DNA of 60,403 bases from a bacterium (GCA_031441465.1 JANOEP010000036.1:1-60403); one strand, 5' to 3'. Shown: positions 3,525 through 60,403, numbered from the stretch's first letter. Program-made: numbers and translations. The notes: generated by a model from the letters alone, not told the origin.

Positions 3525-5684
3525 CTACAGGGCGCGGAAAACGAACACGAGCAAGAGGACGGAGAAGCAGACGTACGCCAGGTACGACTGCACCCGCCCG
3601 GTCTGGACGCGCCGGAAGCCCTCGCCGGCTCCCTGGACGACCACGCCCACACCGTTGACCAGACCGTCCACGACGTACCTGTCCGCGAGGCCGGCGAACC
3701 AGCTCAGCGAGCGGGTCAGGTACCCCATGCCGTTGACGATGCCGTCGATCACCACGCGGTCGAAGGCGCCGTTGAGCCAGCTGAACCACAGCGTGAAGCG
3801 GTAGATCGTCGCCGCGTAGAACTCGTCGAAGAAGTACATGTTCTGCAGGACGTGGTGCACGCGCGGCAGCCGCGCCAGGACCGACGGCGCGCTGATGCGC
3901 CCGCGGATGTAGGTCAGCCACGAAACCAGGATCCCCAGGCCGGCGACCAGGATCGACAGGATCATGGCCGTGATGTGGGCCGTGTGGCGGACGTGGGTGT
4001 CGTGGGCATCGCCGTGGGCTGACGCTTCGCCGTGCGCGGGCGCCTCGCCGTGCGCGGGCGCCTCGTGCGTCGCTGCCGCGTGCGCGGGCTCGCCGTGCGG
4101 CTCCTGCGGCAGGACGGATTCGCCGTGCGCGGCGGCCGGGACCGCGTGAACCTCGCCGGCGTGCGCCGCACCGGACGCCTGCTCCACGATCCGCTCCATG
4201 TCGTACGGCGCGACGAAGCGCGAGAACCAGCCTTCCGACGGGCCGCGCCAGCCCGAGGAGACCACGGCCAGGACCGCGAGGGTCACCAGGGGCACCGTCA
4301 TCGTCCAGGGGGACTCGTGGGCGTGGTGGTGGCGCTCCTCGTCGCGGGGCTTGCCCATGAAGGTCAGGAACACCATGCGGAACATGTAGAAGGCCGTGAG
4401 CCCGGCCGCGATCAGGGCCAGCAGGAAGGGCACGTAGTGCGACTTCGTCATGCCGAAGGCCAGGGCGCCGGCCAGGATGGCGTCCTTGGAGTAGAAGCCC
4501 GAGAAGAACGGCACGCCCGAGATCGCCAGCGTCGCGATCAGGAAAGTCCAGAAGGTGATCGGCATCTTGTGGCGCAGGCCGCCCATCAGGGGCATCTCCT
4601 GCGTGTGGACGGCGTGGATCACCGAGCCGGAGCCGAGGAAGAGCAGGGCCGGGAAGAAGGCGTGCGTCCAGAGGTGGAACATGCCGGCCGACGCGGCGCC
4701 CACGCCCATCGCCATCACCATGTACCCGAGCTGGCTGATGGTGGAGTAGGCCAGGGACTTCTTGATGTCGGTCTTGACCACGGCGATGGTCGCGCCCAGG
4801 AAGGCCGTGATCGCGCCCACGTAGGCCACCACCAGCAGGGAGCCGGGATCGAACAGCGGCAGCAGGCGGGCGACCATGTAGACGCCGGCGGCGACCATCG
4901 TCGCGGCGTGGATCAGGGCGCTGACCGGGGTGGGGCCCTCCATGGCGTCGGGCAGCCAGATGTGCAGCGGGGCCTGCGCCGACTTGCCGACGCAGCCCAT
5001 GAACAGGCCGACGCCCGCCAGCGTCAGCAGGCCGCCCGACAGCGGGCTCAGGTGCGCGGCGGCGAACAGCTCGAAGTAGTTGAAGGTCCCGTAGGCCGTG
5101 AAGAAGATCAGGATGCCCGTGAAGAAGCCGAAGTCGCCGACGCGGTTGGTCAGGAACGCCTTCTTGTTGGCGGCGGCGGCGGACGGCTTGTCGAAGTAGA
5201 AGCCGATCAGCAGGTAGCTCGCCAGGCCCACCAGTTCCCAGAACACGTACAGGAACAGCAGGCTGTTGCTGAGCACGATGCCCAGCATCGAGAAGGTGAA
5301 GAAGCCCAGGAACGCGAAGAAGCGCTCGTAGCGCCGGTCCCCGTGCATGTAGCCGACCGAGAACAGGTGGACCAGGAGGCTGACGGTGGTCACGACCACC
5401 AGCATGATCGCGGTCATGCCGTCGACCAGGATGCCGGCGTCGGCGGTGAAGCGGCCCAGGTCGAGCCAGCGCACGCCGCCCTCGATCCGCAGGCCGGGAT
5501 CACCGACGGCCCAGAAGTGGGCGAAGATGCGCACGGCCAGCAGCCAGGTGACGCCGAGCAGCGACACCCCCAGCCAGTCGCCCTGCCGCGGCAGCTTCTT
5601 CCCGAAGAAGAAGAGGACCGCGTAGGACAGCAGCGGCAGCAGCAGGATGGCCAGCGCCGTCAACAGGATGGCATGTTCGCTCAT
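3525..5684 (-). CDS. nuoL: NADH-quinone oxidoreductase subunit L
   Basis: GKSAQAPLHIWLPDAMEGPTPVSALIHAATMV, LAYSTISQLGYM, SKDAIL and a C-terminal QTGRVQSY. Confidence 0.95.
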   Translation of the reverse strand: MSEHAILLTALAILLLPLLSYAVLFFFGKKLPRQGDWLGVSLLGVTWLLAVRIFAHFWAVGDPGLRIEGGVRWLDLGRFTADAGILVDGMTAIMLVVVTTVSLLVHLFSVGYMHGDRRYERFFAFLGFFTFSMLGIVLSNSLLFLYVFWELVGLASYLLIGFYFDKPSAAAANKKAFLTNRVGDFGFFTGILIFFTAYGTFNYFELFAAAHLSPLSGGLLTLAGVGLFMGCVGKSAQAPLHIWLPDAMEGPTPVSALIHAATMVAAGVYMVARLLPLFDPGSLLVVAYVGAITAFLGATIAVVKTDIKKSLAYSTISQLGYMVMAMGVGAASAGMFHLWTHAFFPALLFLGSGSVIHAVHTQEMPLMGGLRHKMPITFWTFLIATLAISGVPFFSGFYSKDAILAGALAFGMTKSHYVPFLLALIAAGLTAFYMFRMVFLTFMGKPRDEERHHHAHESPWTMTVPLVTLAVLAVVSSGWRGPSEGWFSRFVAPYDMERIVEQASGAAHAGEVHAVPAAAHGESVLPQEPHGEPAHAAATHEAPAHGEAPAHGEASAHGDAHDTHVRHTAHITAMILSILVAGLGILVSWLTYIRGRISAPSVLARLPRVHHVLQNMYFFDEFYAATIYRFTLWFSWLNGAFDRVVIDGIVNGMGYLTRSLSWFAGLADRYVVDGLVNGVGVVVQGAGEGFRRVQTGRVQSYLAYVCFSVLLLVFVFRAL
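4003..4070 (-). repeat. Imperfect 18-bp coding tandem repeat (HGEAPA-type) in the NuoL loop
   Basis: Repeated gccgtgcgcgggcgcctc; protein reads HEAPAHGEAPAHGEASAHGDAHDTH. Confidence 0.7.
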
Positions 5685-43801: not shown

Positions 43802-44431
43802 TCAGCGTCGGAGCCGGTCGCGGTACTGCTCACGGAATTTCTTGAGCTTGGGGTCGATGACGGCGCGGCAGTAGGGCTGCGCCTTGTTGTTGGCGTAATA
43901 GTCCTGGTGCCCCGTCTCGGCGGCGATGAAGGCGTCCAGCATCCCGATGCGCGTCACGGGCGGGTTCGGGTAGAGGCCCGCCGCCGCGACATCGGCCATG
44001 ACCCGCTGCGCCGAGCGGAGCTGCGCCTCGTCGTGGGCGAAGATCGCCGAGCGGTACTGCGGGCCCGCGTCGGCGCCCTGGCGGTCGCGTGTCGTGGGGT
44101 CGTGGATGGTGAAGAAGACGGCCAGCAGTTCGGCGTAGGAGATGACCGCCGGATCGAAGGTCACCTGGACGACCTCGGCGTGCCCGGTGGTCCCGGTACA
44201 GACTTCCTCGTAGGTGACGCGACCCGGGCCGCCGCCGGCATAGCCGGACACGACACGGCTCACGCCCTCCAGTTCCTGGAACACGGCCTCGAGGCACCAG
44301 AAGCAGCCGCCGGCGAGGGTGGCGGTTTCGGTTCGCGGCGGGGGTGCGGCGTCGTTCACGGCGGGGCTCCTTGCAGGGACGAGGATCAGCGCGGACGCGA
44401 GGGCGACGGCGACGGTGGATCGAGTTAGCAT
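43802..44431 (-). CDS. msrA: Peptide methionine sulfoxide reductase A (with signal peptide)
   Basis: GGCFWCLE, GHAEVVQ, QYRSAIF and HQDYY. Confidence 0.93.
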   Translation of the reverse strand: MLTRSTVAVALASALILVPARSPAVNDAAPPPRTETATLAGGCFWCLEAVFQELEGVSRVVSGYAGGGPGRVTYEEVCTGTTGHAEVVQVTFDPAVISYAELLAVFFTIHDPTTRDRQGADAGPQYRSAIFAHDEAQLRSAQRVMADVAAAGLYPNPPVTRIGMLDAFIAAETGHQDYYANNKAQPYCRAVIDPKLKKFREQYRDRLRR

Positions 44432-44549
44432 GTCTTCTCCCGGAGGCGAGGGTGACGGACAAGATAATCACGGGAGTGGTGGATCCGCGACTGGCCCGCC
44501 CCTTGCAAAACCGCCAAGGCACCCCTCCCCTAGCCCGGAGCGACCGGAA

Positions 44550-46667
44550 ATGACGCAGGAGACCGGCGAGTTCACGACCGCCAGGGATCTGTACCTGAAC
44601 CGCGAGTTGAGCCTGCTGGAGTTCCAGCAGCGGGTGCTCGAGGAGGCCCGCGACCCGTCCAACCCCCTGCTGGAGCGTGTCAAGTTCCTGGCCATCCTGG
44701 GATCGAATCTCGACGAGTTCTTCATGGTCCGAGCGGGCGGGCTGAGCATGCAGCAGCAGTCCGGGGTCGTGGAGTTGTCGCTCGACGGGCTGACCCCCGC
44801 CGCCCAGCTGGCGGCCATCCGCAAGCGGGCCTTCCAGCTGATGTCCGAAGCCTCCCGCTGCCTCCACGAGGAATTGCTCCCCGAACTGAAGCAGGCCGGC
44901 GTCCACATCCTCGATCACGCCGATCTCAACGAGAAGCAGCGCGGCCAGGTCGAGAGCTACTTCCAGCAGGTCGTCTTCCCGGTGCTCACGCCCCTGGCCC
45001 ACGATCCCGGCCACCCCTTCCCCCACATCTCCAACCTCAGCCTGAACATGGCCGTCCTGGTGCGCAACACCGAGGGCGAAACCCGCTTCGCCCGGGTGAA
45101 GGTGCCGGCCACCCTGCCGCGGCTGGTGCCCATCAAGCGGTCGTCGGGGAGCGTGAAGCGGGACGGGACGGTGCCGCGCAACCATTACTTCGTCTGGCTC
45201 GAGCAGGTCATCGCCGCCCACCTGGGCGAACTCTTCCACGGCATGGAACTGCTGGAAGCCCACCCTTTCCGGGTGATCCGCAACGCGGACTTCGAGATCC
45301 AGGAACTGGAGGCCAGCGACCTGCTGGAGACGATGGCCGCGAGCGTCAAGGAACGGCAGTTCGGCGACACGGTGCACCTGGGCGTCTCGCCGGAGATGCC
45401 GGCCGCGATCCGCGACATCCTGACGCGCAACCTCGGTCTGGTCGAACGCGACGTCTACGTCCTGCCGCGGCCCCTCGGCCTGGCCGGGCTGGCGCAGGTC
45501 TACGAGGTGGACCGCTACGACCTCAAGTTCCCCCCCTTCACGCCCAACGTGCCGGCGCCGCTGCGCGCCGAGACGCGCGAGGGCGACATCTTCGCCGCGA
45601 TCCGGCAGGGCGACCTGATGGTCCACCACCCCTACGACTCGTTCGATCCGGTGGTGGAGTTCCTGCAGGCGGCCGCCCGCGATCCCCAGGTCCTGGCCAT
45701 CAAGCAGACGCTCTACCGCGTGGGGCGCGACTCGCCGGTGGTCCGGGCCCTGCTGCGGGCCAGGCGCGACTACCACAAGCAGGTGGCGGTGCTGGTGGAA
45801 CTGAAGGCCCGCTTCGACGAGGACAGCAACATCGGCTGGGCGCGCATGCTCGAAAACGAGGGCGTCCACGTGACCTACGGCCTGCTGGGGCTCAAGACGC
45901 ACTGCAAGGTGCTGCTGGTCGTGCGGCAGGAGGGCGAAGAGATCCGGCGCTACGTCCACCTCGGCACCGGCAACTACAACCACGGGACGGCCCGCGCCTA
46001 CGAGGACCTCGGGATGTTCACCTGCGATCCCGACATCGGCGCCGACGCCACCGACCTCTTCAACTACCTCACCGGCTATTCGGCCCAGAAGGAATACCGC
46101 CGGCTGATCGTGGCGCCGGTCAACATGCGCGAGCGCCTCGACGGCCTGCTGCGGCGCGAGATCGCCCACGCCCGCGCCGGGACGAAAGCCCGGCTGGTGC
46201 TGAAGATGAACGCGCTGGTGGACCGCCGGATCATCCATCTGCTGTACGAGGCTTCACAGCAGGGCGTGCAGGTCGACTTGATCGTGCGCGGCGTCTGCAG
46301 CCTGCGGCCGGGCGTCGCCGGATTGAGCGAGAACATCCGCGTCACGAGCGTCGTCGGGCGTTTCCTTGAGCACAGCCGCATCTACTACTTCCGCAACGGC
46401 GGCGACGAGGAAATCTACGCGGGCAGCGCCGACCTCATGACCCGCAACATCGACCGGCGCGTGGAGGTGCTGTTCCCGGTGACCAACCCGTCCCTGCGGC
46501 GCTACCTGCGGGACGACGTGCTCGGCTCCTACCTCGCGGACAACACCTCGGGGCGCGCCATGCAGCCCGGCGGCGGCTACGTGCGCAAACGGCCCGCGGA
46601 AGGCGAGGACCCCGTGCAGGTCCAGCGCCGCCTGCTGGAGAGCCGCGGCGGCGTCTGGCGCCGCTGA
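44550..46667 (+). CDS. ppk1: Polyphosphate kinase 1
   Basis: NRELSLLEF, NLDEFFMVR, HHPYDSF, ELKARFDE and GRFLEHSR. Confidence 0.95.
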   Translation: MTQETGEFTTARDLYLNRELSLLEFQQRVLEEARDPSNPLLERVKFLAILGSNLDEFFMVRAGGLSMQQQSGVVELSLDGLTPAAQLAAIRKRAFQLMSEASRCLHEELLPELKQAGVHILDHADLNEKQRGQVESYFQQVVFPVLTPLAHDPGHPFPHISNLSLNMAVLVRNTEGETRFARVKVPATLPRLVPIKRSSGSVKRDGTVPRNHYFVWLEQVIAAHLGELFHGMELLEAHPFRVIRNADFEIQELEASDLLETMAASVKERQFGDTVHLGVSPEMPAAIRDILTRNLGLVERDVYVLPRPLGLAGLAQVYEVDRYDLKFPPFTPNVPAPLRAETREGDIFAAIRQGDLMVHHPYDSFDPVVEFLQAAARDPQVLAIKQTLYRVGRDSPVVRALLRARRDYHKQVAVLVELKARFDEDSNIGWARMLENEGVHVTYGLLGLKTHCKVLLVVRQEGEEIRRYVHLGTGNYNHGTARAYEDLGMFTCDPDIGADATDLFNYLTGYSAQKEYRRLIVAPVNMRERLDGLLRREIAHARAGTKARLVLKMNALVDRRIIHLLYEASQQGVQVDLIVRGVCSLRPGVAGLSENIRVTSVVGRFLEHSRIYYFRNGGDEEIYAGSADLMTRNIDRRVEVLFPVTNPSLRRYLRDDVLGSYLADNTSGRAMQPGGGYVRKRPAEGEDPVQVQRRLLESRGGVWRR

Positions 46668-46673
46668 GGCCGC

Positions 46674-47834
46674 TCAGGGCAGCAGGTCCCGGTCCGGTAC
46701 GCCCAGGCAGGTTCCCAACGATCGCGCCGCGTGGAGCCAGGGGTGGTCGATCGGCACGGTCTGCTTGCGGCCGGCGACCTGGTCCAGGGGCACCGGCACG
46801 ATCTCGCTCCCCCGCACCGCCGTCATCACGTTGACGACCCCCTCGGCCAGCAGGTCCGCCGCCTTCACGCCCAGGCGCGTGCACAGCAGGCGGTCGGTCG
46901 GGGTCGGCCCTCCGCCGCGCTGGACGTGGCCCAGGGCGGTGACGCGCGCGTCGGTCCCGGTCAGCATCTGGAGCTTGCGGGCGAGGCTGGAGGCGAGGGA
47001 CTCGTGCACCAGCCGCCGGCTGTGCAGGTCCTCGCCCTTCCCGGGCGAGGCTTCGACCTTCGGCGCCGCGTTTTTGCGGCCCGGCCGGACCGCGGCGGCC
47101 TGCTCGCGCGTGAGCGCCCCTTCGGCCACGACGATGATCGAGAACCGTTTGCCGAAGCGGCGCTGCCGCTCCAGCAGGTAGTCCTTCACCACGTGCAGGT
47201 CGTAGGGGATCTCCGGGATCAGGATGACGTCGGCGCCGGCGGCCAGCCCCGCGCCGAGCGCCAGCCAGCCGGCGCTGTTGCCCATGACTTCCACCACGAT
47301 GATGCGATCGTGGCTGGTCGCCGTGGTGTGCAGGCGGTCGATGGCCTCGGCGGCGATGCTCATGGCCGTGTCGAAGCCGAAGCTGACGTCGGTGCCGGCC
47401 ACGTCGTTGTCGATGGTCTTGGGCAGCGTCAACACGTCCAGGCCGCCCGCGCGCTGCAACTGATGGGCGTTCTTCTGGGTGCCGTTGCCTCCCAGGCAGA
47501 CCAGGCACTCGATGCCGTGGCTGCGGGCATTGGCCACCGCGACGGCGGTCATGTCCAGGACCTGGTCGCCCATCAGCATCTTGTTGGGCTTGTCGCGGCT
47601 GGTGCCGAGGATCGTGCCGCCGAGGGTCAGGACGTTGCTCAGGATCTGGGTGTCCAGGCGCAGCACCCGGTTTTCGACGAGACCCCGGAAGCCGTCCCGG
47701 ATCCCGATCACCTCCATGCCGTGGCGCTGGATGGCGGCCTTGGCGATGCCGCGGATGGCGGCGTTGAGTCCGGGGCAGTCCCCGCCGGCGGTGAGGATGC
47801 CGATGCAGCGGATCTGCGATGATCTTCCGTTCAT
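46674..47834 (-). CDS. pfkA: 6-phosphofructokinase (group III-like)
   Basis: GGDCPGLN, GGTILGTSR, GGNGT, PKTIDND, EVMG and GHVQRGG. Confidence 0.92.
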   Translation of the reverse strand: MNGRSSQIRCIGILTAGGDCPGLNAAIRGIAKAAIQRHGMEVIGIRDGFRGLVENRVLRLDTQILSNVLTLGGTILGTSRDKPNKMLMGDQVLDMTAVAVANARSHGIECLVCLGGNGTQKNAHQLQRAGGLDVLTLPKTIDNDVAGTDVSFGFDTAMSIAAEAIDRLHTTATSHDRIIVVEVMGNSAGWLALGAGLAAGADVILIPEIPYDLHVVKDYLLERQRRFGKRFSIIVVAEGALTREQAAAVRPGRKNAAPKVEASPGKGEDLHSRRLVHESLASSLARKLQMLTGTDARVTALGHVQRGGGPTPTDRLLCTRLGVKAADLLAEGVVNVMTAVRGSEIVPVPLDQVAGRKQTVPIDHPWLHAARSLGTCLGVPDRDLLP

Positions 47835-47957
47835 GTCACGTCCCGTTCCGGAGGAGGCGAAGGCGGCCGCCACCGTTCGTGGCCGCCGCCGGCGGTATCA
47901 TAGTGAGGCCGGATGCGCGCCCGCAAGCGCTGCCTGCGGGGGAGCGGGCACGAGCGG

Positions 47958-49325
47958 CTAGCGCGCCGTTCGTTCCGCCCGGGCCAATCCTTCCTGCACC
48001 GTCGAGATCTTGCCCTCGAGCTGGGCCTCGTAGCAGTCGTCGAGGATCGCCTTGAAACCGGGGCCGGGCGTCAGCCCGATGTCGATCAGGTGGCGGCCCT
48101 GGACCAGCGGCCGCGGCGGCGCGGTGCGGACGTCCAGCGCCGCGGCGCGTTCCAGCAGCCAGTCCCCGGCGGGAAACCCGGGACCGGCGCCATCGCCGCG
48201 CCCGAGGCGGTCGGCCCGGGCAACGCGCACCAGACGGTCGATCCGGCCCACTCGGTGTGCGAGGCGGCGGATCGCGGCGTCGCCCGCGGCGGCGCGGTGC
48301 AGCTCGTAGGGCCGGGAATGTTCGCGCACCAACGGGATGACCTGTTCGACGAGGTCGCGCTGCGGTGTCAGCCGCGCCAGCAGCTCGCGGGCCGGCGCCT
48401 CGCCGGCTTCGAGGTGGCCCGGCGAACGCAGCCGCCCGTCCTCCAGCCTGGTCGTGGCCGGCTTGCCCAGGTCGTGGCAGAGCACGGCCAGCCCGACGAT
48501 CAGGTCCTCGCGCTCGTCGCCGACGCGTTCGGCGGCGAACACGTCCAGGCAGAGGCCGGTGTGGGTCCAGACGTCCCCCTCGGGGTGCCACGCAGGATCC
48601 TGCCCGCACCCGGCGAGGGCCGCGAGTTCCGGGAAGAAGCGCAGCCAGCCGGTCTCCTGCAGGAACGCGAGGCCCAGGGAAGGCCGGACCCCCAACAACA
48701 AGAGCTTGCGCCACTCCTCGAAGATCCGCTCGCGCGCCAGCCCTTCGAGATCCAGGCCGCGGCAAGCCGCCACGGTCGGCGGGTCGGCGGCGAGTTCGAA
48801 GCGCGCGACCAGCTGCATGCCGCGCAGGACGCGCAGCGGATCCTCCGCGAAGTGCTCCGAGACCCGGCGCAGGACGCGCCGCTCCAGATCCTCGCGGCCG
48901 CCCACGGGATCGACGACCTCGTCGGCGAGCGGGTCGTAGGCGATGGCGTTGAGCGTGAAGTCGCGCCGCAGCGCGGCCTCCCGCTGCGACAACGCAGGGT
49001 CGGATTGCACAAGGAAACCGCGGTGGCCCAGGCCGGCCTTCGATTCGCGCCGCGGCAGCGAGACGTCGACCGGCGCGCCGCGCAGCTTCAGCACGCCGAA
49101 GGCCCGGCCCGTCCGGTCCAGGGCGTGGCGCGCCGACAGCAGCGCTTCGAGGCGCTCCGGCTCGACGCCGTACACTTCGAGGTCGTGATCCACGGGCGCG
49201 CGGCCCAGCAGCGCGTCGCGGACGCAGCCGCCGACCAGCAGGGCGCGACCGCCTTCGTCGCGCACGGCGCGGCAGACGTCCAGCACGACGTCGCGCACTC
49301 CATCATCGACCGGCTGCCAGCGCAT
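47958..49325 (-). CDS. cca: tRNA nucleotidyltransferase (CCA-adding) with HD domain
   Basis: VGGCVRD, RRDFTLNA, EDPLRVLR, HPEGDVWTHT and HDLGK. Confidence 0.85.
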   Translation of the reverse strand: MRWQPVDDGVRDVVLDVCRAVRDEGGRALLVGGCVRDALLGRAPVDHDLEVYGVEPERLEALLSARHALDRTGRAFGVLKLRGAPVDVSLPRRESKAGLGHRGFLVQSDPALSQREAALRRDFTLNAIAYDPLADEVVDPVGGREDLERRVLRRVSEHFAEDPLRVLRGMQLVARFELAADPPTVAACRGLDLEGLARERIFEEWRKLLLLGVRPSLGLAFLQETGWLRFFPELAALAGCGQDPAWHPEGDVWTHTGLCLDVFAAERVGDEREDLIVGLAVLCHDLGKPATTRLEDGRLRSPGHLEAGEAPARELLARLTPQRDLVEQVIPLVREHSRPYELHRAAAGDAAIRRLAHRVGRIDRLVRVARADRLGRGDGAGPGFPAGDWLLERAAALDVRTAPPRPLVQGRHLIDIGLTPGPGFKAILDDCYEAQLEGKISTVQEGLARAERTAR

Positions 49326-49399
49326 GGTCCCGCTCCTTCCCCGCGCCATCATCGCCGCAACGGCGGCCGCTGGCAACAGCGCGCCGCCGTGAATAAGAG

Positions 49400-53291: not shown

Positions 53292-54704
53292 ATGCGCATG
53301 GGAACCGACCGACGCGACTTCCTCAAGCTGATCGTCGCTGCCACGGCCGCCTCCGCCCTGCCGGCGTGGTCCGGTTCGCCGGCGCCCGCTCCCGAGCCCA
53401 GGCCCGCGACCGCGCTCCCGCGCCGTCCCGACATTCTGGTCGTGCTGGCCGACGACCACCGCCACGACGCCCTCGGCTGCGCCGGCCACCCCTACGTGCA
53501 GACGCCCGCCCTGGACCGCGTCGCGGCCGGAGGCGTCCGCTTCACGAACGCCTGCGTGACGACCTCGCTTTGCAGCCCGTCGCGCGCCAGCTACCTGACG
53601 GGCTGCTACCCGCACCGGCACGGCCTCTGCACCAACGCCAACCGCTCCCTGAGGTCGGACCTGCCCACCTACCCGGCGCTGTTGCAGGCGGCCGGCTACG
53701 AGACGGCCTTCCTGGGCAAGTGGCACCTCGGCGAACAGACCGCCCGCCAGCCCGGCTTCGACCACTGGGCCGTGCTGCGCGGCCAGGGCGCCTACGCGCC
53801 CAACGACCTCGTGGTCGACGACCAACCCGTCCGCGAGGAACGCTACATCACCGACGCGCTCACCGAGCGCGCCGTGGAGATCATGACGCGGCCCCGCGAC
53901 AAGCCGTTGCTGCTGGTGCTGAGCCACAAGGCGGCGCACGGCCCCTTCGTACCGGCGGAACGCCATGCCCGGCTCTACGCCGACGAGGATCCGGATCTTT
54001 ACTGGGCCCCGGACGAAGACGTCTCCCGCAAGCCGTCCCGGCCGGATCGCACGACCTACGAGTCCCAGCGCGGTTCGGTCCTGGATTATTACCGCTGCCT
54101 GGCCGCCGTCGACGAGAGCATGGCCGCCCTGGACGCCGAGCTGGAGAAGACGGGCCGGCGCGACGACACGCTTCTGGTCTACACCAGCGACAACGGTTTC
54201 CTGCTCGGCGAGCACGGCGGGCTGTGGGACAAGCGCTGCGCCTACGAGCCGGCCATCCGGGTGCCGCTGCTCGTGCGCTGGCCGCGCACCCTGCCCGGCG
54301 GCGCCGTCAGCGGGGAACTGGCCCTGAACCTCGACCTGCTGCCGTCGCTGCTCGAGGCCGCGGGCGTGAAGGTCCCGCCTGGCGTCCAGGGCCGCTCCTG
54401 GCTGCCGCTCGCCCGCGGCGGGACCGGTCGCGACGAGTTCCTCTACGAGTATTTCCAGGACGAGGGCCCGGTCGGCTCGCTGGTCGCCGTGCGCACGCGC
54501 CGCTGGAAGTACGTGGCGCCCCTGGACCACCACGGCGGCCGCAACGCGCGACAGCCGGTGGAGATGTACGACCTCGCCGCCGATCCCGGCGAGCTGCGCA
54601 ACCTCGCGGGCGACCCGGCATTCGCGGCCGAACGGGAAGAACTGGAAAGAACCCTCGTGCGGCTGATGGACGAGACGGGCTACGTCTTCTGCGGGTCGCG
54701 ATGA
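53292..54704 (+). CDS. Tat-exported Cys-type sulfatase
   Basis: DRRDFLK Tat motif, ADDH, CSPSRASYLTG, GKWHLG and SDNG. Confidence 0.92.
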   Translation: MRMGTDRRDFLKLIVAATAASALPAWSGSPAPAPEPRPATALPRRPDILVVLADDHRHDALGCAGHPYVQTPALDRVAAGGVRFTNACVTTSLCSPSRASYLTGCYPHRHGLCTNANRSLRSDLPTYPALLQAAGYETAFLGKWHLGEQTARQPGFDHWAVLRGQGAYAPNDLVVDDQPVREERYITDALTERAVEIMTRPRDKPLLLVLSHKAAHGPFVPAERHARLYADEDPDLYWAPDEDVSRKPSRPDRTTYESQRGSVLDYYRCLAAVDESMAALDAELEKTGRRDDTLLVYTSDNGFLLGEHGGLWDKRCAYEPAIRVPLLVRWPRTLPGGAVSGELALNLDLLPSLLEAAGVKVPPGVQGRSWLPLARGGTGRDEFLYEYFQDEGPVGSLVAVRTRRWKYVAPLDHHGGRNARQPVEMYDLAADPGELRNLAGDPAFAAEREELERTLVRLMDETGYVFCGSR

Positions 54705-55828
54705 CGGCCGCCCCGCGCGGGCCGTCCCTGCTGCTGGTCAAGCCTGCCGGCGCCGACTGCAACTTCCGCTGCGACTACTGTTTCTACCTCGACGCCGACG
54801 CCCGCCGCGGCGCGTCCCGCCGCCGCATGAGCGACGAGGTCCTCGAACGGATGATCGCCTCCTACCTCGCGCTCGACCTGCCGGTCCACGCCTTCTGCTG
54901 GCAGGGTGGCGAACCGACGCTGATGGGTCTCGACTTTTACCGCAGGGTGACGGAACTGCAGGAGCGGCACGGCCGGCCCGGCACGGTCATCGCCAACAGC
55001 CTGCAGACCAACGCCGCGCTGATCGACGACGCGTTCGCCGATCACCTGGCCGAGTACCGCTTCCTGGTGGGGTGCAGCCTCGACGGGCCGCCGCGCCTGC
55101 ACGACCGGCGGCGGCGCGGCGCGCAGGGAGGCGCAACCCACGAACACACCGTGACCGGGTTGCGCCGGCTGCAAGCGCGGGACGTGGCGGTCAACGCCCT
55201 CTGCGTGGTCCACGACGTCAACGTCGGCCACGCACGCGAGGTGTTCGGCCATCTCGCCGGACTGGGCTTCGACCACCTGCAGTTCCTGCCCTGCGTCGAG
55301 TTCGGGCCCGATGGCGCGCCGCGGCCCTGGACGATCGACGGGCGGGGGTGGGGAGAGTTCCTGATCGGGATCTTCGAGGCGTGGCGGGACACGGGGATGA
55401 CGGTCTCGGTGCGGAACCTCGACGCCGTCCTGCAGCGATTGGTCGACGATCGGCCAGGGGACTGCACGATGGATGACAGTTGCCGGCAGTACTTGGTCGT
55501 CGAGCACGACGGGGGGTACTATCCCTGCGATTTCAACGTCTCGCCGGACCGTCGCCTGGGCAACGTCATGGACATGACGCCCGCCGCCGCGATGGCCGCG
55601 ACGGGCATGGTCGAATTCGGTGCAGGCAAGGCGCCTGCGTCGACCTCCTGTCCGGCGTGCCGGCACTTCGACATCTGCCGCGGCGGCTGCCCTGCCAGGC
55701 GCGATCCGCGCGAAGCCGCGGGCAGGGAGTGGCTGTGCGAGGGGACGCTCGCCCACCTGGACCATGCGCGAGGATATCTGGAGTTCCTGGCGGACGGGAT
55801 CCGCAGGGCGCAGCGGGAAGGCGCCTGA
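54701..55828 (+). CDS. Anaerobic sulfatase maturase (radical SAM/SPASM)
   Basis: KPAGADCNFRCDYCFY, WQGGEPTL, LQTN, YPCD and CxxC-x5-C-x3-C SPASM; ATGA overlap with the sulfatase. Confidence 0.9.
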   Translation: MTAAPRGPSLLLVKPAGADCNFRCDYCFYLDADARRGASRRRMSDEVLERMIASYLALDLPVHAFCWQGGEPTLMGLDFYRRVTELQERHGRPGTVIANSLQTNAALIDDAFADHLAEYRFLVGCSLDGPPRLHDRRRRGAQGGATHEHTVTGLRRLQARDVAVNALCVVHDVNVGHAREVFGHLAGLGFDHLQFLPCVEFGPDGAPRPWTIDGRGWGEFLIGIFEAWRDTGMTVSVRNLDAVLQRLVDDRPGDCTMDDSCRQYLVVEHDGGYYPCDFNVSPDRRLGNVMDMTPAAAMAATGMVEFGAGKAPASTSCPACRHFDICRGGCPARRDPREAAGREWLCEGTLAHLDHARGYLEFLADGIRRAQREGA

Positions 55829-55847: not shown

Positions 55848-56930
55848 TCAGGACCCGCCCCCGTTCCACGGCAGTCCGGGATCGAAGAAGTGCAGCCCCT
55901 GTCCCAGCTTCACCCCGATCACCGCTGCCGGGTAGCGCGCCACCAGCTCCGGATGCGCGAAAAACCCGGCCGCCTGCCTTTCCCCCCGCCCGACCATCTC
56001 AAAGCTGACATCCAGCGGTCGCTCGATGTTGGGGGCATAAGCCACCCGCACCAAGCACTCCGAAGCGCCCGTCTGCACAGCCCTGACCGCCGCCTCGCGC
56101 GCCCCGTACGACCCGATCCGGTCGATGTGCGAGAGGTGCTTGCCCGACAGCGCCCCGCCGCCGATCGGGATGCGCGGGCCGTAGAAGTCCATGACGAGCT
56201 TGCGGCCGGTCTGGCCGTTGTCGCCGTTGCTGCCGGCCTGCACCAGCGGGCCGTTCGGGTTGATCATCAGCCCGATCTCGTCCCAGCGGGCGCGCCAGCG
56301 CGGGTCGCGCTCCCTCGCTTCGGAGTAAGCGCGCGCGAGCACCAGCACGACCGCCTCGCAAACATCCATGAACGCGGCGTCGGCATGCTGCTGGAGCGTG
56401 ACCAGTAAATGTTCCACGATCCAGCGCCCGCCCTCCTCGCGCATACGCAGCAGCAACTTGCCGTCCGGCCCCTGCCCGGCCAGCGGTCCTTCAGCGCAGG
56501 CAGAGGCCAGCGCCTCGCGGAACACGTGGCAAAGGTAGTGTTCCGGCGGCAGGTAGCGCGTGTTCGCGTCGTAACCTGCCCAGCCCAGCACCACGCTCTG
56601 GTCGTTGACCTTCCCCGTGAACCGCGCGGGATCGTCCAGCACTTCGCACACGGCGCTGTGCACCGTGTAGCGGTTGGCGTCGACGTGGTTGCCGGGGACG
56701 TAGCCGATGTCCAGCCCCGTTTGAACCACGATGTCCCGCAGCGTGCGCGCCAGGGGCCGGCGGGTGCAGACGCCGCCCGTCAGCCAGAGTTGGCAGGACC
56801 AGACGGCGGCCTCGATCTGCGCGTAGGCGTCCGCATCGACGCCGACGCATTCGGCGACGATGGCGTCGGCGACCTGGTCGCAGAACTTGTCGGGGTGGCC
56901 GGACAGGACGATTTCGCTGATGCGGATCAT
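55848..56930 (-). CDS. Divergent methionine adenosyltransferase (MetK)-like protein
   Basis: SEIVLSGHPDKFCDQVAD, NDQS, PDGK, NPNG...GDNGQTGRKLVMDFYG and GGGALSGK...DR; 360 aa. Confidence 0.85.
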   Translation of the reverse strand: MIRISEIVLSGHPDKFCDQVADAIVAECVGVDADAYAQIEAAVWSCQLWLTGGVCTRRPLARTLRDIVVQTGLDIGYVPGNHVDANRYTVHSAVCEVLDDPARFTGKVNDQSVVLGWAGYDANTRYLPPEHYLCHVFREALASACAEGPLAGQGPDGKLLLRMREEGGRWIVEHLLVTLQQHADAAFMDVCEAVVLVLARAYSEARERDPRWRARWDEIGLMINPNGPLVQAGSNGDNGQTGRKLVMDFYGPRIPIGGGALSGKHLSHIDRIGSYGAREAAVRAVQTGASECLVRVAYAPNIERPLDVSFEMVGRGERQAAGFFAHPELVARYPAAVIGVKLGQGLHFFDPGLPWNGGGS

Positions 56931-58309
56931 GTGCGGTTTCCTTTCAGTTCCGGGAGCTGGGTGTAGGCGAGGCCGGCGCGCTCCAGCGCGGCGGGATTGC
57001 CGTCGCGGCTGACCAGCACGTGCAGCTTCGTGCCGGACGCCCTCGCCACGAGCTGCGGGTCCAGGGCCTCGATGTAGCCGTCGGTGACCACCACGGCGGA
57101 GGCCGGGCGCGTCCTGATCACGTGTTCCAGCACGCAGGACAGGCTGGTGCCGCCCGTGGTCTGAGCCTTCAGGACGCCGCGCTCGATGACGGCGGGCGCG
57201 ACGACGTCGCTGAAGGCCCAGAACGGCCGGCGGATCAGGCCGGAGAGCTGGCCGAGCAGGTTCACGATCTGCGGCATCTCGGCGTGCATGGATCCCGACA
57301 CGTCCAGGTAGACCTGGGCCGTGCCGGCGCGGCGCGGCGCGGACCCCTCCCAGGCCGCTTCCGGCAGGAAGGGCGTCCACTGCGCGCGCAGGAAGGCGCG
57401 GCGGTCTCCCGACGACAGCACCGGCAGCCGGTAGTCGCACGGGGAGTCGACGCGGCGCCGTGAGCGGCGATCGGGCGAGAGATGGCGGCGGAGGATCGCG
57501 AGCGTCGTCGCCCGCCAGCGCCGCAACGGCGCGTCGTCCGCCCTGATGAGCGCCTCGTAGGGGTTGGCGCCGACGCCGCGGCTGCCGGGTGAACGCCAGA
57601 TGCCGTGGCCGTTCATCTCCTTCATCGCCCGCTCCAGGGCGTCGCGCAGGGGACCCACCAGTTCTTGGTCGAACTCGTCGTGGTTGCCCAGCAGGTCGCC
57701 GGGCTCGTCGGACCCGTCGTCCCCGAACGTGAAGGGCCCCGGGCCCTGCACCTCCGTCGACGGATTCTCGAGCTGCTCCGCCAGGGCTTCGATGTCGTCG
57801 GCGATCAGTCCGCCCCGGTACAGCGACTCCCAGGCCAGAACCCAGGACGGCAACCGGCTCCGCTCCTCGCAACTGCGGACGGTCTTCAAACAGTCGGACT
57901 CCTGCGCGCCCATCGGTCGCAGCAGCTTGCGGCGGCCGGCCGCCTTCGCGTAGTAGCGCGCGAAGATCGAGGAGTACCCCGGCCCGTGCTGACGGTGGAT
58001 GATGGCGTTGATCACGGCGTCGACGGCCAGATGACGGGCCGGCGTCACCGGCCGCCTCTGCTCGGTGTGGCGCAGGATCACGTGCAGGAACTCGTGACAG
58101 ACGACCGCCTTCACCTCGTCGTCGTTCGCGCAATGCCCGCCGATGAAGTCGAGGTTGACCAGCAGCCGCGGACGGTCCGTGCAGGTCACGGCCAAGGTCA
58201 GCACCGCCGTGGTGAATTCGATCTCCAGGATCTGCAGCGCGGCTCGGATGGCGAAGGGGTTCTCGTCGATCAGCTCCAGCAGGATCGAGCGGAAGCGTCG
58301 TTCGTTCAT
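56927..58309 (-). CDS. HExxH putative metallopeptidase plus vWA domain protein (DUF2201-like MoxR partner)
   Basis: HEFLHVILRH...AVDAVIN; MIDAS DVSGS, GGTS and VVTDG. Confidence 0.85.
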   Translation of the reverse strand: MNERRFRSILLELIDENPFAIRAALQILEIEFTTAVLTLAVTCTDRPRLLVNLDFIGGHCANDDEVKAVVCHEFLHVILRHTEQRRPVTPARHLAVDAVINAIIHRQHGPGYSSIFARYYAKAAGRRKLLRPMGAQESDCLKTVRSCEERSRLPSWVLAWESLYRGGLIADDIEALAEQLENPSTEVQGPGPFTFGDDGSDEPGDLLGNHDEFDQELVGPLRDALERAMKEMNGHGIWRSPGSRGVGANPYEALIRADDAPLRRWRATTLAILRRHLSPDRRSRRRVDSPCDYRLPVLSSGDRRAFLRAQWTPFLPEAAWEGSAPRRAGTAQVYLDVSGSMHAEMPQIVNLLGQLSGLIRRPFWAFSDVVAPAVIERGVLKAQTTGGTSLSCVLEHVIRTRPASAVVVTDGYIEALDPQLVARASGTKLHVLVSRDGNPAALERAGLAYTQLPELKGNRT

Positions 58310-58773
58310 GAGTAGAATCCATCCAGGTCGAAGAGTTCGAGACCGCGTCCGAGGCTGGCCTCGGTCCAGAGCACCGGCCGCGCCGGGTCGTAGATCTGCG
58401 CCGTGCAGAGGCCCAGCATCAGCGCCTGGCGCAGCACCGCAGTGCGTTGGCCGCTTGCCGCGGACAGCCGCGGGGCATCGGGAGGCAGCGACCGGCAGAC
58501 CAGTCGCCTCTCCGGCAACTGGAACACGCCCCGCAGGTCTTCGGGATCGGCGTAGCCGGCTTCGGCCAGCAGGTTCTCCAGCGCCTCGACACGCGTCGGT
58601 GCGGCGAAATGGAGGCCCAAGCGGATCACGCACGGGCAGCGGATCTCGCCGTCGTCCTTGCCGAGCAGCGAGGAAGCGACCGTCTCGGTGCGGGTGCGGC
58701 TCATGGGGCCGCCCATGTTGGCGCGCAGGACGGGCCGCCGCTCCGTCTGCGCACACCATCCCGAGGCGATCAT
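58306..58773 (-). CDS. Hypothetical protein (155 aa; alternative start 58704)
   Basis: Fills the gap exactly, with ATGA overlaps to both neighbours; no recognisable motif. Confidence 0.55.
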   Translation of the reverse strand: MIASGWCAQTERRPVLRANMGGPMSRTRTETVASSLLGKDDGEIRCPCVIRLGLHFAAPTRVEALENLLAEAGYADPEDLRGVFQLPERRLVCRSLPPDAPRLSAASGQRTAVLRQALMLGLCTAQIYDPARPVLWTEASLGRGLELFDLDGFYS

Positions 58774-60170
58774 CGTTGCCACCATTCCGCGAGGTACCTG
58801 GCGCAGTCCTCGATCTCCTGCTCCAGCGCGGCCGGGTCCTCGGGACTGACCCGCTCGACCAGGCACCAGTTGAAGTACTGGCGCGCCCGCTCGTAGCGCC
58901 CGCTGTCGGCCTCCAAATCGGCGAGCACACGCGCGAAACGGTCGCAGTCGGGATGGACCGTGCCCTGCTCGGCGATGCGTTCCTGCCAGGAGATCTCGCC
59001 CGCCACCGACAAGATGGGAGCGGCCGCCTTGGCGAGGTCGTTGACCCCCTCCGCCCCGATGAAGAGAAAGCCCTTCGCCGCGGCCGCGTACGTGGCGAAG
59101 GCGAAGGCCGCGGCCCGTTCCTTGGATTCCGAAGCCAGCAGCTGGGCCACGGCCTGGGAGCACAGGTCCGGAGTCCGGCCGTGCTCGCCCAGGATCTTCA
59201 CCTTCCGCACCAGGGGATTCTCGACCAGGAATCGGTGGATCCAGCCGTCCTCGAACGGCGAGATGCAATCCAGCGCGTAGCGGTGAGCCGCCGCGACGGC
59301 TTCCTCCCTGACTTTCACCCCCCAGGTCCGCTGCGGCAGGCTGGCCTGGAGCACGCACAGGCACATCTGGTCGGTCGTCTCACCCGCGACGATCGTTGCT
59401 GCCAGCAGGCTGCGCACCATCAACCGCACGCGGCGCGGCGACACGCGGATGCCCGCGCTGTTGAGCGCCGAGACCGCGTGGACCATGTAGACCAGGATGC
59501 GTTCGGGGCAATCCTCGACCTGCTCGCGGAAGGTCTGTCGCCACGTTTCGACCAGCCCCTTGAGCCGCCCCGCGTCGTCCGCGATCCTCCCTTCTCCGCT
59601 CGGGTCGGCGATGAGCCGCCGCGCCTCATCGTCCAGACCTCTCCAGTCCGACGCTTCCACGAACAGCGCAAACCGATCGGCCAGTGCCTGATCCAGCGGC
59701 TCCGACCCCGCGTAGTCCTCGGCCCCCCCCCGGTCGGCCGAGCACGGGTTCATCGCCGCCCACCGGTAACGCAGCCTGGGCAGCGCGATCCCCTGGATCC
59801 GGCGCTCGTGCACGAGCGCGAACAGGCGGTTCTGGTGCTCGGGCTTGCAGCGGCTGATCTCGTCGATCAGCACCGACTCGGCGCCCCAGACCGTGGCCGG
59901 TGTTTCGAGAAATTTCACGGCGCCGCGCTCCTGGTCCGGATACGGGAACCCGACCAGGTCGTCGAACGAGATCAGGCTGGCGTTGTAGTGGCGGTGTTCG
60001 AGGCCCAGGGCTTCGGAGAGGGAATTGAGCAGGAAGGTCTTGCCGGTGCCCGAGGCCCCGATCAGCAGCAACGGGTCCTCGGTGACCAGCGCGGCCAGGA
60101 TCACTGGCTCGAGCCGGTCGAATCCGTAGACGCCGAGATCGCACAGGTGGGAATGCGCACGGGTAGGCAC
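58770..60170 (-). CDS. MoxR-like AAA+ ATPase
   Basis: Walker A GASGTGKT, Walker B VLIDE, AAMNP sensor, LDQALADRF Arg finger; AGGAGG RBS before GTG. Confidence 0.9.
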   Translation of the reverse strand: MPTRAHSHLCDLGVYGFDRLEPVILAALVTEDPLLLIGASGTGKTFLLNSLSEALGLEHRHYNASLISFDDLVGFPYPDQERGAVKFLETPATVWGAESVLIDEISRCKPEHQNRLFALVHERRIQGIALPRLRYRWAAMNPCSADRGGAEDYAGSEPLDQALADRFALFVEASDWRGLDDEARRLIADPSGEGRIADDAGRLKGLVETWRQTFREQVEDCPERILVYMVHAVSALNSAGIRVSPRRVRLMVRSLLAATIVAGETTDQMCLCVLQASLPQRTWGVKVREEAVAAAHRYALDCISPFEDGWIHRFLVENPLVRKVKILGEHGRTPDLCSQAVAQLLASESKERAAAFAFATYAAAAKGFLFIGAEGVNDLAKAAAPILSVAGEISWQERIAEQGTVHPDCDRFARVLADLEADSGRYERARQYFNWCLVERVSPEDPAALEQEIEDCARYLAEWWQR

Positions 60171-60308: not shown

Positions 60309-60403
60309 TCACGTGGCGACGTGTTCCCACAGGAAGTCCGGCTCCTCGCGCCCGAAGTGCCCGTAGGCCGCCGTGTCGTAGTAGATGGGCCGCAGCAGTC
60401 GCA
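60309..60403 (-). CDS. metK: 3' end of S-adenosylmethionine synthetase (partial)
   Basis: Manual translation [30 protein letters not shown] matches the canonical MetK C-terminus. Confidence 0.8.

Follow-up and report, generated by a model that had tools for sequence, protein, structure and literature searches.

A MetK-like gene at positions 55848..56930 (minus strand) of a 60,403-nucleotide stretch of bacterial DNA (GCA_031441465.1 JANOEP010000036.1:1-60403; the whole stretch is hereafter termed the window) belongs to a separate clade of S-adenosylmethionine (SAM) synthetase paralogs in which the residues of the ATP-cleaving half are kept and the residues that hold methionine are replaced. 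The gene encodes a protein of 360 aa and is the fourth and last gene of a cassette that also encodes a MoxR-type AAA+ ATPase, a 155-aa protein, and a protein with an HExxH motif and a VWA domain. SAM synthetase is among the most conserved enzymes, and its family is regarded as having one function; a fixed, widespread paralog that keeps the ATP-cleaving half and has a rebuilt acceptor half suggests that methyl-group metabolism has, at its center, chemistry or regulation not yet recognized. The reading that we favor, and to which we give slightly less than an even chance, is that the MetK-like protein, induced by SAM starvation and activated by its MoxR and VWA neighbors, transfers adenosyl groups and has had its acceptor site rebuilt.

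The MetK-like gene was characterized by translation, Pfam and NCBIfam models, alignment to Protein Data Bank (PDB) entries, AlphaFold2 (AF2) prediction, and G+C content at third codon positions (GC3). The reading frame is intact, begins with ATG, and has a coding-type GC3 of 0.89. The product has the three-domain MetK fold: Pfam detects the C domain at 70 bits, the N domain at 48.6 bits, and the M domain at 18 bits (the last below its cut-off), and the AF2 model (predicted local distance difference test, pLDDT, 87.8; low confidence in residues 227-252 only) has as its top Foldseek matches exclusively MetK and MAT2A, with template-modeling (TM) scores of 0.77-0.83. A phmmer search of the PDB returned 45 distinct sequences, 45 of 45 being SAM synthetases, and E. 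coli MetK (1fug) aligned at E 6.5e-27. The score on the metK equivalog model TIGR01034 is 136.6 bits (E 1e-39) vs. a cut-off of 309.4, and identity to E. coli MetK is 28% by MAFFT, as against 49-69% between the canonical MetKs that we compared from different phyla. Because the equivalog score falls under the cut-off, the comparison supports the conclusion, drawn from sequence, that the protein is not an ordinary SAM synthetase. A preliminary description of the locus had proposed as much, and its proposal is borne out also by the presence of a canonical metK elsewhere in the genome (578 bits on the same model) and by the separate clade described below. The few relatives of the protein that have a name at NCBI carry the label 'methionine adenosyltransferase domain-containing protein'.

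To map active-site residues we used a HMMER alignment to E. coli MetK (1fug) and a MAFFT alignment that included E. coli MetK and the genome's own MetK; residue numbers are those of E. coli. According to passages of PMC3853416, His14 of E. coli MetK is the catalytic acid, Phe230 stacks on the adenine, Asp163 and Asp238 hold the ribose, Asp238 and Glu55 hold the methionine amino group, Gln98 and Lys269 hold the methionine carboxylate, and Ile102 touches the methionine side chain; passages of PMC1282579 are in partial agreement on these roles. Both alignments show that the MetK-like protein retains E8, H14, D16, K17, E42, D118 (in the context NDQS where E. coli has GDQG), D163, K165, D238, R244, K245, K265, and D271. 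The set of catalytic, tripolyphosphate, Mg, and K ligands (H14, D16, K17, E42, K165, R244, K245, K265, D271) is complete, and the GHPDK motif that contains H14, D16, and K17 (56886..56900, minus strand) is kept in 120 of 121 near relatives and in 75-76 of the 76 proteins of a wider set, both defined below. The methionine ligand set (E55, Q98, K269, I102) is not conserved. GGVCT (56763..56777, minus strand) replaces GGEIT, with loss of E55, the E55 column being occupied by V in the HMMER alignment and by G in the MAFFT alignment (a register difference of one), neither of them acidic; the QSPDI motif, and with it I102, is missing, and the Q98 column is variable; and GKHLSHIDR (56118..56144, minus strand) replaces GKDPSKVDR, with K265 and D271 kept and K269 and D266 both changed to H. 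The adenine-stacking aromatic is likewise missing (F230 changed to L), and R229 is changed to P.

The residues that the preliminary description had listed as retained, and those that it had listed as changed, are all reproduced by both alignments, and its suggestion of nucleoside triphosphate (NTP)-dependent chemistry is plausible, as the triphosphate and catalytic residues are invariant. Its further claim that methionine binding is lost is less secure: the polar residues that have taken over from the ligands (His269, Asn239, and Gln241) are themselves invariant, and archaeal methionine adenosyltransferases (MATs), as described in the same passages of PMC3853416, bind the carboxylate with His and Asn. 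Its candidate acceptor, a methionine of a peptide or protein set free by the HExxH partner, is conjectural. The loop in the QSPDI region is, in an ambiguous alignment, 7 residues shorter than that of E. coli; because it is only 2 residues shorter than that of the genome's own MetK, the claim that the protein has a shortened gating loop is weak.

Whether the substitutions define a clade was assessed with two sets of relatives and a tree. The near-relative set (n = 121) comprised 120 proteins listed by a word-indexed search (58-91% identity, 349-402 aa) and the window protein; within it, H14, D16, K17, E42, D118, D163, K165, D238, R244, K245, K265, and D271 are each kept in 120-121 proteins, and K269H, G117N, C239N, L241Q, and R229P each occur in 121/121. 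This set is skewed to the window's nearest kin, and the counts were therefore repeated on species-representative genomes, with cassette-linked proteins from 75 of 80 loci plus the window protein (n = 76; five loci with truncated matches were left out). In this wider set K269H, C239N, and L241Q are each present in 76/76 and D238 is kept in 76/76; H14, D16, K17, E42, K165, R244, K245, K265, and D271 are kept in 75-76/76; E55 is non-acidic in 75/76; G96C is present in 73/76; and position 230 is Leu in 57/76 and Phe in 9/76. A metal site in the old methionine pocket, formed by H265, H268, and the Cys of GGxCT, was considered and dropped as a general feature, D266H being found in 32/76 and the Cys in 20/76.

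An exhaustive search of 50%-identity representatives returned 98 proteins at E<=1e-30. The tree (IQ-TREE quick mode, LG+G4, 93 rows) was built from 86 of 150 listed representatives (300-560 aa), 12 clade members, 7 canonical MetKs, and the window protein, after removal of 13 truncated or frameshifted rows (P0126, P0129, P0131, P0138, P0145, P0153, P0159, P0165, P0183, P0196, P0207, P0238, P0267). It splits into the canonical MetKs (38 rows; Shimodaira-Hasegawa-like approximate likelihood ratio test, SH-aLRT, 98), a His269 clade that contains the window protein (21 rows, SH-aLRT 97), and a third family (34 rows, SH-aLRT 96). The alignment and phylogeny thus confirm, at the level of sequence, that the substitutions are fixed features of a clade and not unique decay, because they are fixed across a separate clade; decay to a pseudogene, which the preliminary description had named among the outcomes that would refute it, is ruled out by the conservation across relatives. 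The third family (P0179, P0190, and 32 other rows) was unexpected: it has E55 changed to R, G117 to D, and R244 to K, lacks the QSPDI loop, and keeps K269 and F230. A search of a phage collection with a third-family member gave two weak matches. Apparent VWA-MetK-like fusions (P0159, P0196) show patchy, frame-hopping similarity, look like assembly frameshifts, and were rejected.

The cassette reads, 5' to 3', MoxR-type AAA+ ATPase, 155-aa protein, HExxH+VWA protein, and MetK-like protein, and all three of its junctions are ATGA overlaps. The first gene (58770..60170, minus strand; 466 aa) has a GTG start behind an AGGAGG Shine-Dalgarno sequence. Its product scores above the Pfam cut-offs for AAA_5 (33.7 bits) and AAA_3 (28.8 bits), matches in the PDB, by sequence, only midasin and the MoxR protein 2r44, and carries a Walker A motif (GASGTGKT, 60036-60059), a Walker B motif, and a sensor that are conserved in 54 orthologs, which places it in the MoxR/midasin clade. 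The second gene (58306..58773, minus strand) overlaps its neighbors at both ends and is conserved in position in 62/80 loci; its 155-aa product is predicted by AF2 (pLDDT 85) to have 45 disordered N-terminal residues, with a conserved NxGGPxSRxR, followed by a confident alpha/beta domain. This small protein has no Pfam family, no Atlas match, and no Foldseek match in the PDB at E<=0.001, with a best VIA Z of 2.7. The third gene (56927..58309, minus strand; 460 aa), whose stop overlaps the start of the MetK-like gene, encodes a DUF2201-type protein with a zincin-like HExxH domain and a VWA domain with an intact metal-ion-dependent adhesion site (MIDAS; DxSxS...T...D): across 64 orthologs, conservation is at least 95% for HEFLH (58082-58096) and for the MIDAS elements DVSGS (57290-57304), GGTS, and TDG. 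A predicted complex of two copies of the MetK-like protein with the small protein scored 0.01 vs. a mark of 0.32 and counts neither way.

A scan of one genome per species, 185,579 species genomes in total, found 364 loci, of which 80, spanning 16 named phyla, were kept; the overall spread is patchy. By blastp all four genes are present in 62/80 loci and are colinear in 62/62, and the remaining 18 loci are mostly cut contigs or loci in which the small open reading frame (ORF) is too diverged for blastp. Beyond the cassette and its shadow ORFs no further neighbor is conserved, clusters reaching at most 8 of the 80 loci. Among the window's kin the MetK-like paralog was found in 5/7 genomes of the genus, G000 being one of the seven, and in 0/34 other genomes of the family and class. 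A plasmid search found only canonical metK, at <33% identity, and the deep-branching relative P0155, used as query against metagenomes, had a single match, at 29% identity.

The window's genome contains three MetK-family genes. The housekeeping metK lies on another contig of the same genome and scores 578.4 bits on the metK model. A second, canonical-type MetK (MetK2) is cut by the contig end at 60403, so that the window holds only its last 30 codons and stop (60309..60401, minus strand, 93 bases; tblastn). In these residues it shares 87-90% identity with the C-terminus of the MetK that immediately precedes the cassette in loci L004 and L005, and 72% (tblastn) with the housekeeping MetK. In 8/80 loci the cassette has a canonical-type MetK upstream of it on its own strand. 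Because the cassette-linked MetKs of L004, L005, L014, and L036, which come from different phyla (Latescibacterota, Burkholderiales, Chromatiaceae), form one subclade within the canonical MetKs (SH-aLRT 99), the tree suggests that this subclade travels with the cassette. A canonical metK was found elsewhere in the genome in 6/6 genomes checked (the window's and five other cassette-bearing genomes); the MetK-like paralog is therefore not a replacement for it. In locus L066 part of a MetK N-terminal domain remains (131 aa; 4222-4617, 102.6 bits) between two SAM-I/IV riboswitches and looks like a decayed cassette-linked MetK.

Expression of the cassette in many lineages appears to be tied to SAM itself. 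Of the 80 loci, 54 were scanned for riboswitches with Rfam gathering scores as the threshold, the other 26 being without the AAA start or any upstream DNA, and we found a SAM riboswitch (RF00162, RF01725, or RF00521) upstream on the cassette strand in 25/54 loci: SAM-I in 3, SAM-II in 5, and SAM-I/IV in the other 17 and also in L041, a SAM-II locus. The aptamer ends at most 170 nucleotides (nt) from the AAA start in 19/25 loci and abuts the start in L037 and L063. SAM riboswitches of these classes are OFF switches, and metK and methionine genes are classically controlled by a SAM riboswitch at the head of their operon. Because a SAM riboswitch directly precedes the AAA+ gene in many lineages, the cassette would be made when SAM runs low. 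In L027 (3472-4774) three SAM-I/IV riboswitches stand in tandem, the first two each before a small ORF with no Pfam family and the third abutting the AAA gene; genes for Druantia DruM and DruF lie just downstream of the cassette in the same locus. Opposite-strand SAM-I/IV riboswitches near the cassette in L014 (14334-14458, minus strand) and L077 (2047-2147, minus strand) serve other genes.

According to the hypothesis that we favor, the MetK-like enzyme would be the catalytic end-piece of a translationally coupled four-gene cassette that, in the window's lineage, is preceded by a second, canonical-type MetK and that, in many other lineages, would be made when low SAM is sensed by the riboswitch. 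The hypothesis is built on direct observations: which residues are kept and which changed, the separate clade, the conserved gene order, the ATGA junctions, and the riboswitches of related loci. Judging from the retained residues, Mg2-NTP and K+ are most likely still bound by the enzyme, and the MetK half-reactions most likely persist: the C5'-O bond would be cleaved, the His14 equivalent serving as the acid, and tripolyphosphate would be handled as in MetK. The acceptor sub-site, by contrast with this conserved half, appears rebuilt (K269H, C239N, L241Q; E55 and the QSPDI loop lost), and because it is rebuilt the nucleosyl group would go to an acceptor other than canonically bound L-methionine. 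By analogy with MoxR-VWA pairs that act on adjacent client enzymes, the AAA+/VWA pair may act on the MetK-like enzyme or on the small protein; a peptide would be captured by the MIDAS site, ATP-driven remodeling would ensue, cleavage by the zincin may follow, and the enzyme would be switched on. The steps of the argument are these: an invariant catalytic half points to an active, NTP-using enzyme; a fixed, rebuilt acceptor half together with the constant presence of a canonical metK points to a new job; riboswitch control would tie that job to SAM shortage; and strict, coupled synteny with the MoxR/VWA pair suggests a relation of activase and client. Taken with the second MetK and the riboswitches of relatives, the AAA+ gene and the small gene, all of them features that the preliminary description does not mention, move the reading towards SAM homeostasis.

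Several points weigh against this hypothesis. We infer the chemistry, the mechanism of activation, and the OFF-switch nature of the riboswitches, and an acceptor other than canonically bound L-methionine is a prediction from sequence. The methionine carboxylate could still be held, in the manner of archaeal MATs, by the His, Asn, and Gln that are invariant here, and the proposed service of the AAA+/VWA pair to the MetK-like protein is argued from synteny and analogy. The 460-aa protein scores below the Pfam cut-offs for both of its domains (DUF2201, 23.6 bits vs. 26.4; DUF2201_N, 18.9 bits). At Rfam gathering scores 29/54 scanned loci have no riboswitch, and the window's own leader lies past the contig end at 60403. 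In the window's three closest relatives (L004, L005, L006) a SAM-II match lies ~25 nt before MetK2 but scores ~30 bits vs. a cut-off of 36; this sub-threshold evidence comes from three non-independent close relatives and is a lead only for the window's lineage.

The same observations can be read in other ways. On the unlikely side, in our estimate, is the possibility that the protein is a true methionine adenosyltransferase: a starvation-induced isozyme in which His269, Asn239, Gln241, Asp/Asn236, and Asp238 hold the amino and carboxylate groups of methionine and for which MoxR/VWA would be needed for assembly or activation. Riboswitch control in 25/54 loci is of the classical metK type, all catalytic and triphosphate residues are kept, and D238, which contacts both the methionine amino group and the ribose, is kept without exception; the archaeal use of His and Asn, in place of Gln and Lys, for the carboxylate would supply a structural precedent. 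Such an isozyme would, however, be redundant beside the canonical-type MetK of its own operon (in 8/80 loci and in the window's lineage) and beside the canonical metK co-present in 6/6 genomes, and it would have lost E55, the QSPDI loop with I102, and F230 and diverged to 28% identity to E. coli MetK, far below the range seen among canonical MetKs. Much less probable again, indeed very improbable, is a pseudoenzyme without catalytic activity whose only role would be to sense ATP or SAM and so to regulate the AAA+, VWA, and zincin proteins: the substrate ligands are changed and the ATGA overlaps would couple its stoichiometry to the other proteins, but pseudoenzymes usually lose residues of the catalytic type, and here H14, K165, R244, K245, K265, D16, and D271 persist in virtually every member of the wider set. 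To a decaying metK pseudogene, for which the low metK-model score might be cited, we assign next to no probability, this reading having been refuted already by conservation; the frame is intact, GC3 is of coding type, the 120 listed relatives are of similar length at 58-91% identity, and the substitutions are fixed across phyla.

An anti-phage module is a further reading, which we consider unlikely, slightly more so than the isozyme. Phage SAM-degrading enzymes would lower SAM, the riboswitch would de-repress the cassette, and the MetK-like protein would serve either as an effector that burns ATP by releasing tripolyphosphate or as a decoy that binds MetK-targeting phage proteins, with the MoxR, VWA, and zincin components acting as a switch, as in MoxR-vWA ternary conflict systems. 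In favor of such a module, the spread is patchy (364/185,579 genomes, 16 named phyla, 5/7 in the genus vs. 0/34 in the family and class), and the titles of PDB entries 8bb1 and 7ock describe phage T3 SAM lyase bound to MetK. A search of neighbor proteins against PADLOC (99 of 137 submitted; E<=1e-8, within ~2.7 kb) gave matches in 14/25 loci, including Druantia DruM and DruF (L027), cytosine methylases (L082), and NERD-UvrD (L061), and Pfam finds integrase, HNH, PD-(D/E)XK, and WYL neighbors in some loci. The majority of the PADLOC matches, however, are to generic domains (HTH, HNH, WYL, CSD, ankyrin), other loci lie amid housekeeping genes (eut, ABC transporters, sulfatase, NorB), and the cassette proteins themselves match no PADLOC model save for a weak AAA match (22.7 bits). 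A riboswitch would fire on nutritional SAM shortage too, which is awkward for a toxic effector, and the invariant catalytic residues speak against a pure decoy.

Comparison with known systems places the adenosyl-transfer reading in context. With MetK and MAT2A (TIGR01034; 1fug, 1rg9) the MetK-like protein shares the three-domain fold, the catalytic His, and the tripolyphosphate, Mg, and K ligands, and it differs from them in that E55, the Q98/I102 loop, K269, and F230 are replaced and in being an extra copy, in a separate clade, that sits in a MoxR/VWA cassette. Archaeal MATs (e.g. that of Thermococcus kodakarensis, in passages of PMC3853416) provide the precedent for a His where bacteria have Lys, but they form a very divergent, separate sequence family with no MoxR/VWA linkage; the archaeal MAT model PF01941 has a precomputed match on only a few clade members. 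To our knowledge the ATP:cob(I)alamin adenosyltransferases (CobA, PduO, EutT) are the only other enzymes that displace the C5' tripolyphosphate of ATP with a non-methionine nucleophile; they show that C5' chemistry with other acceptors exists, although their folds are unrelated to that of the MetK-like protein and there is no sign here of a corrinoid acceptor.

MoxR AAA+/VWA pairs that serve a single adjacent enzyme include CbbQ-CbbO, NorQ-NorD, CoxD-CoxE, and the Mg-chelatase pair BchI-BchD. The cassette resembles them in having a MoxR-clade ATPase and a VWA protein with intact MIDAS beside a single enzyme, and differs from them in the N-terminal HExxH zincin-like domain of its VWA protein, an obligatory fourth, small protein, a client of MetK fold, and SAM-riboswitch control. 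A common MoxR-vWA mechanism, in which the vWA domain captures a peptide and ATP-driven remodeling follows, is outlined in passages of PMC7159879 (Kaur et al., 2020), and the MoxR-vWA ternary conflict systems described there likewise have a MoxR + vWA core and a patchy spread and lie sometimes in defense islands. Pfam found none of their VMAP, iSTAND, FtsH, or beta-propeller third components in the four cassette proteins (bpMoxR, 17.3 bits vs. 27), and a term search of the main text of PMC7159879 returned no mention of MetK or 'SAM synth'. Targeted full-text searches (subscription journals and supplements being outside their scope) found no paper on the MetK-like/MoxR/VWA cassette or its link to SAM riboswitches, and the DUF2201 literature, judged by titles and the beginnings of abstracts, appears unrelated. 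The cassette is undescribed and is built from known parts, the MetK fold and the MoxR-VWA module.

The cassette is compact, with four or five genes, and would, if assigned to adenosyl transfer, be a target of a new kind for three riboswitch classes and supply MoxR-VWA chaperones with a new client. A more far-reaching proposal, which we regard as doubtful, is that the MetK fold, for which only one reaction is known to date, gave rise to a second enzyme class, in which the C5' of ATP adenosylates a non-methionine acceptor to yield a SAM surrogate or an entry to methionine salvage; such a class would need a dedicated MoxR/VWA/zincin activase, would be induced through SAM riboswitches, and would constitute an unrecognized branch of SAM homeostasis that may serve against SAM-degrading phages as well.

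Other genes were noted near the cassette. An ORF of ~220-270 aa with no Pfam family recurs up- or downstream of it (L014:3379-4035, L036:1575-2387, L009:3429-4124, L069:9482-10177), and genes of the PNP_UDP_1 nucleoside phosphorylase/nucleosidase superfamily lie upstream in L030 (1861-2577) and L080 (2719-3459); directly upstream of the cassette are an HD_4 gene in L014 and a calcineurin-like phosphoesterase gene in L018. In the window, a sulfatase gene with a twin-arginine translocation (TAT) signal (53292-54704, plus strand) is followed by a radical SAM/SPASM gene of the anaerobic sulfatase-maturase type (54701-55828, plus strand), which converges on the MetK-like gene with a gap of 19 nt; genes for a GH31 protein and a Mem_trans transporter lie upstream. 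The radical SAM gene was considered as a partner of the cassette and rejected, as it pairs with the TAT-signal sulfatase as an anaerobic sulfatase-maturating enzyme in a convergent operon. Elsewhere the window encodes a polyphosphate kinase (44244-46667, plus strand), a phosphofructokinase (46674-47897, minus strand), and a poly(A)/CCA-type nucleotidyltransferase with an HD domain (47958-49376, minus strand).

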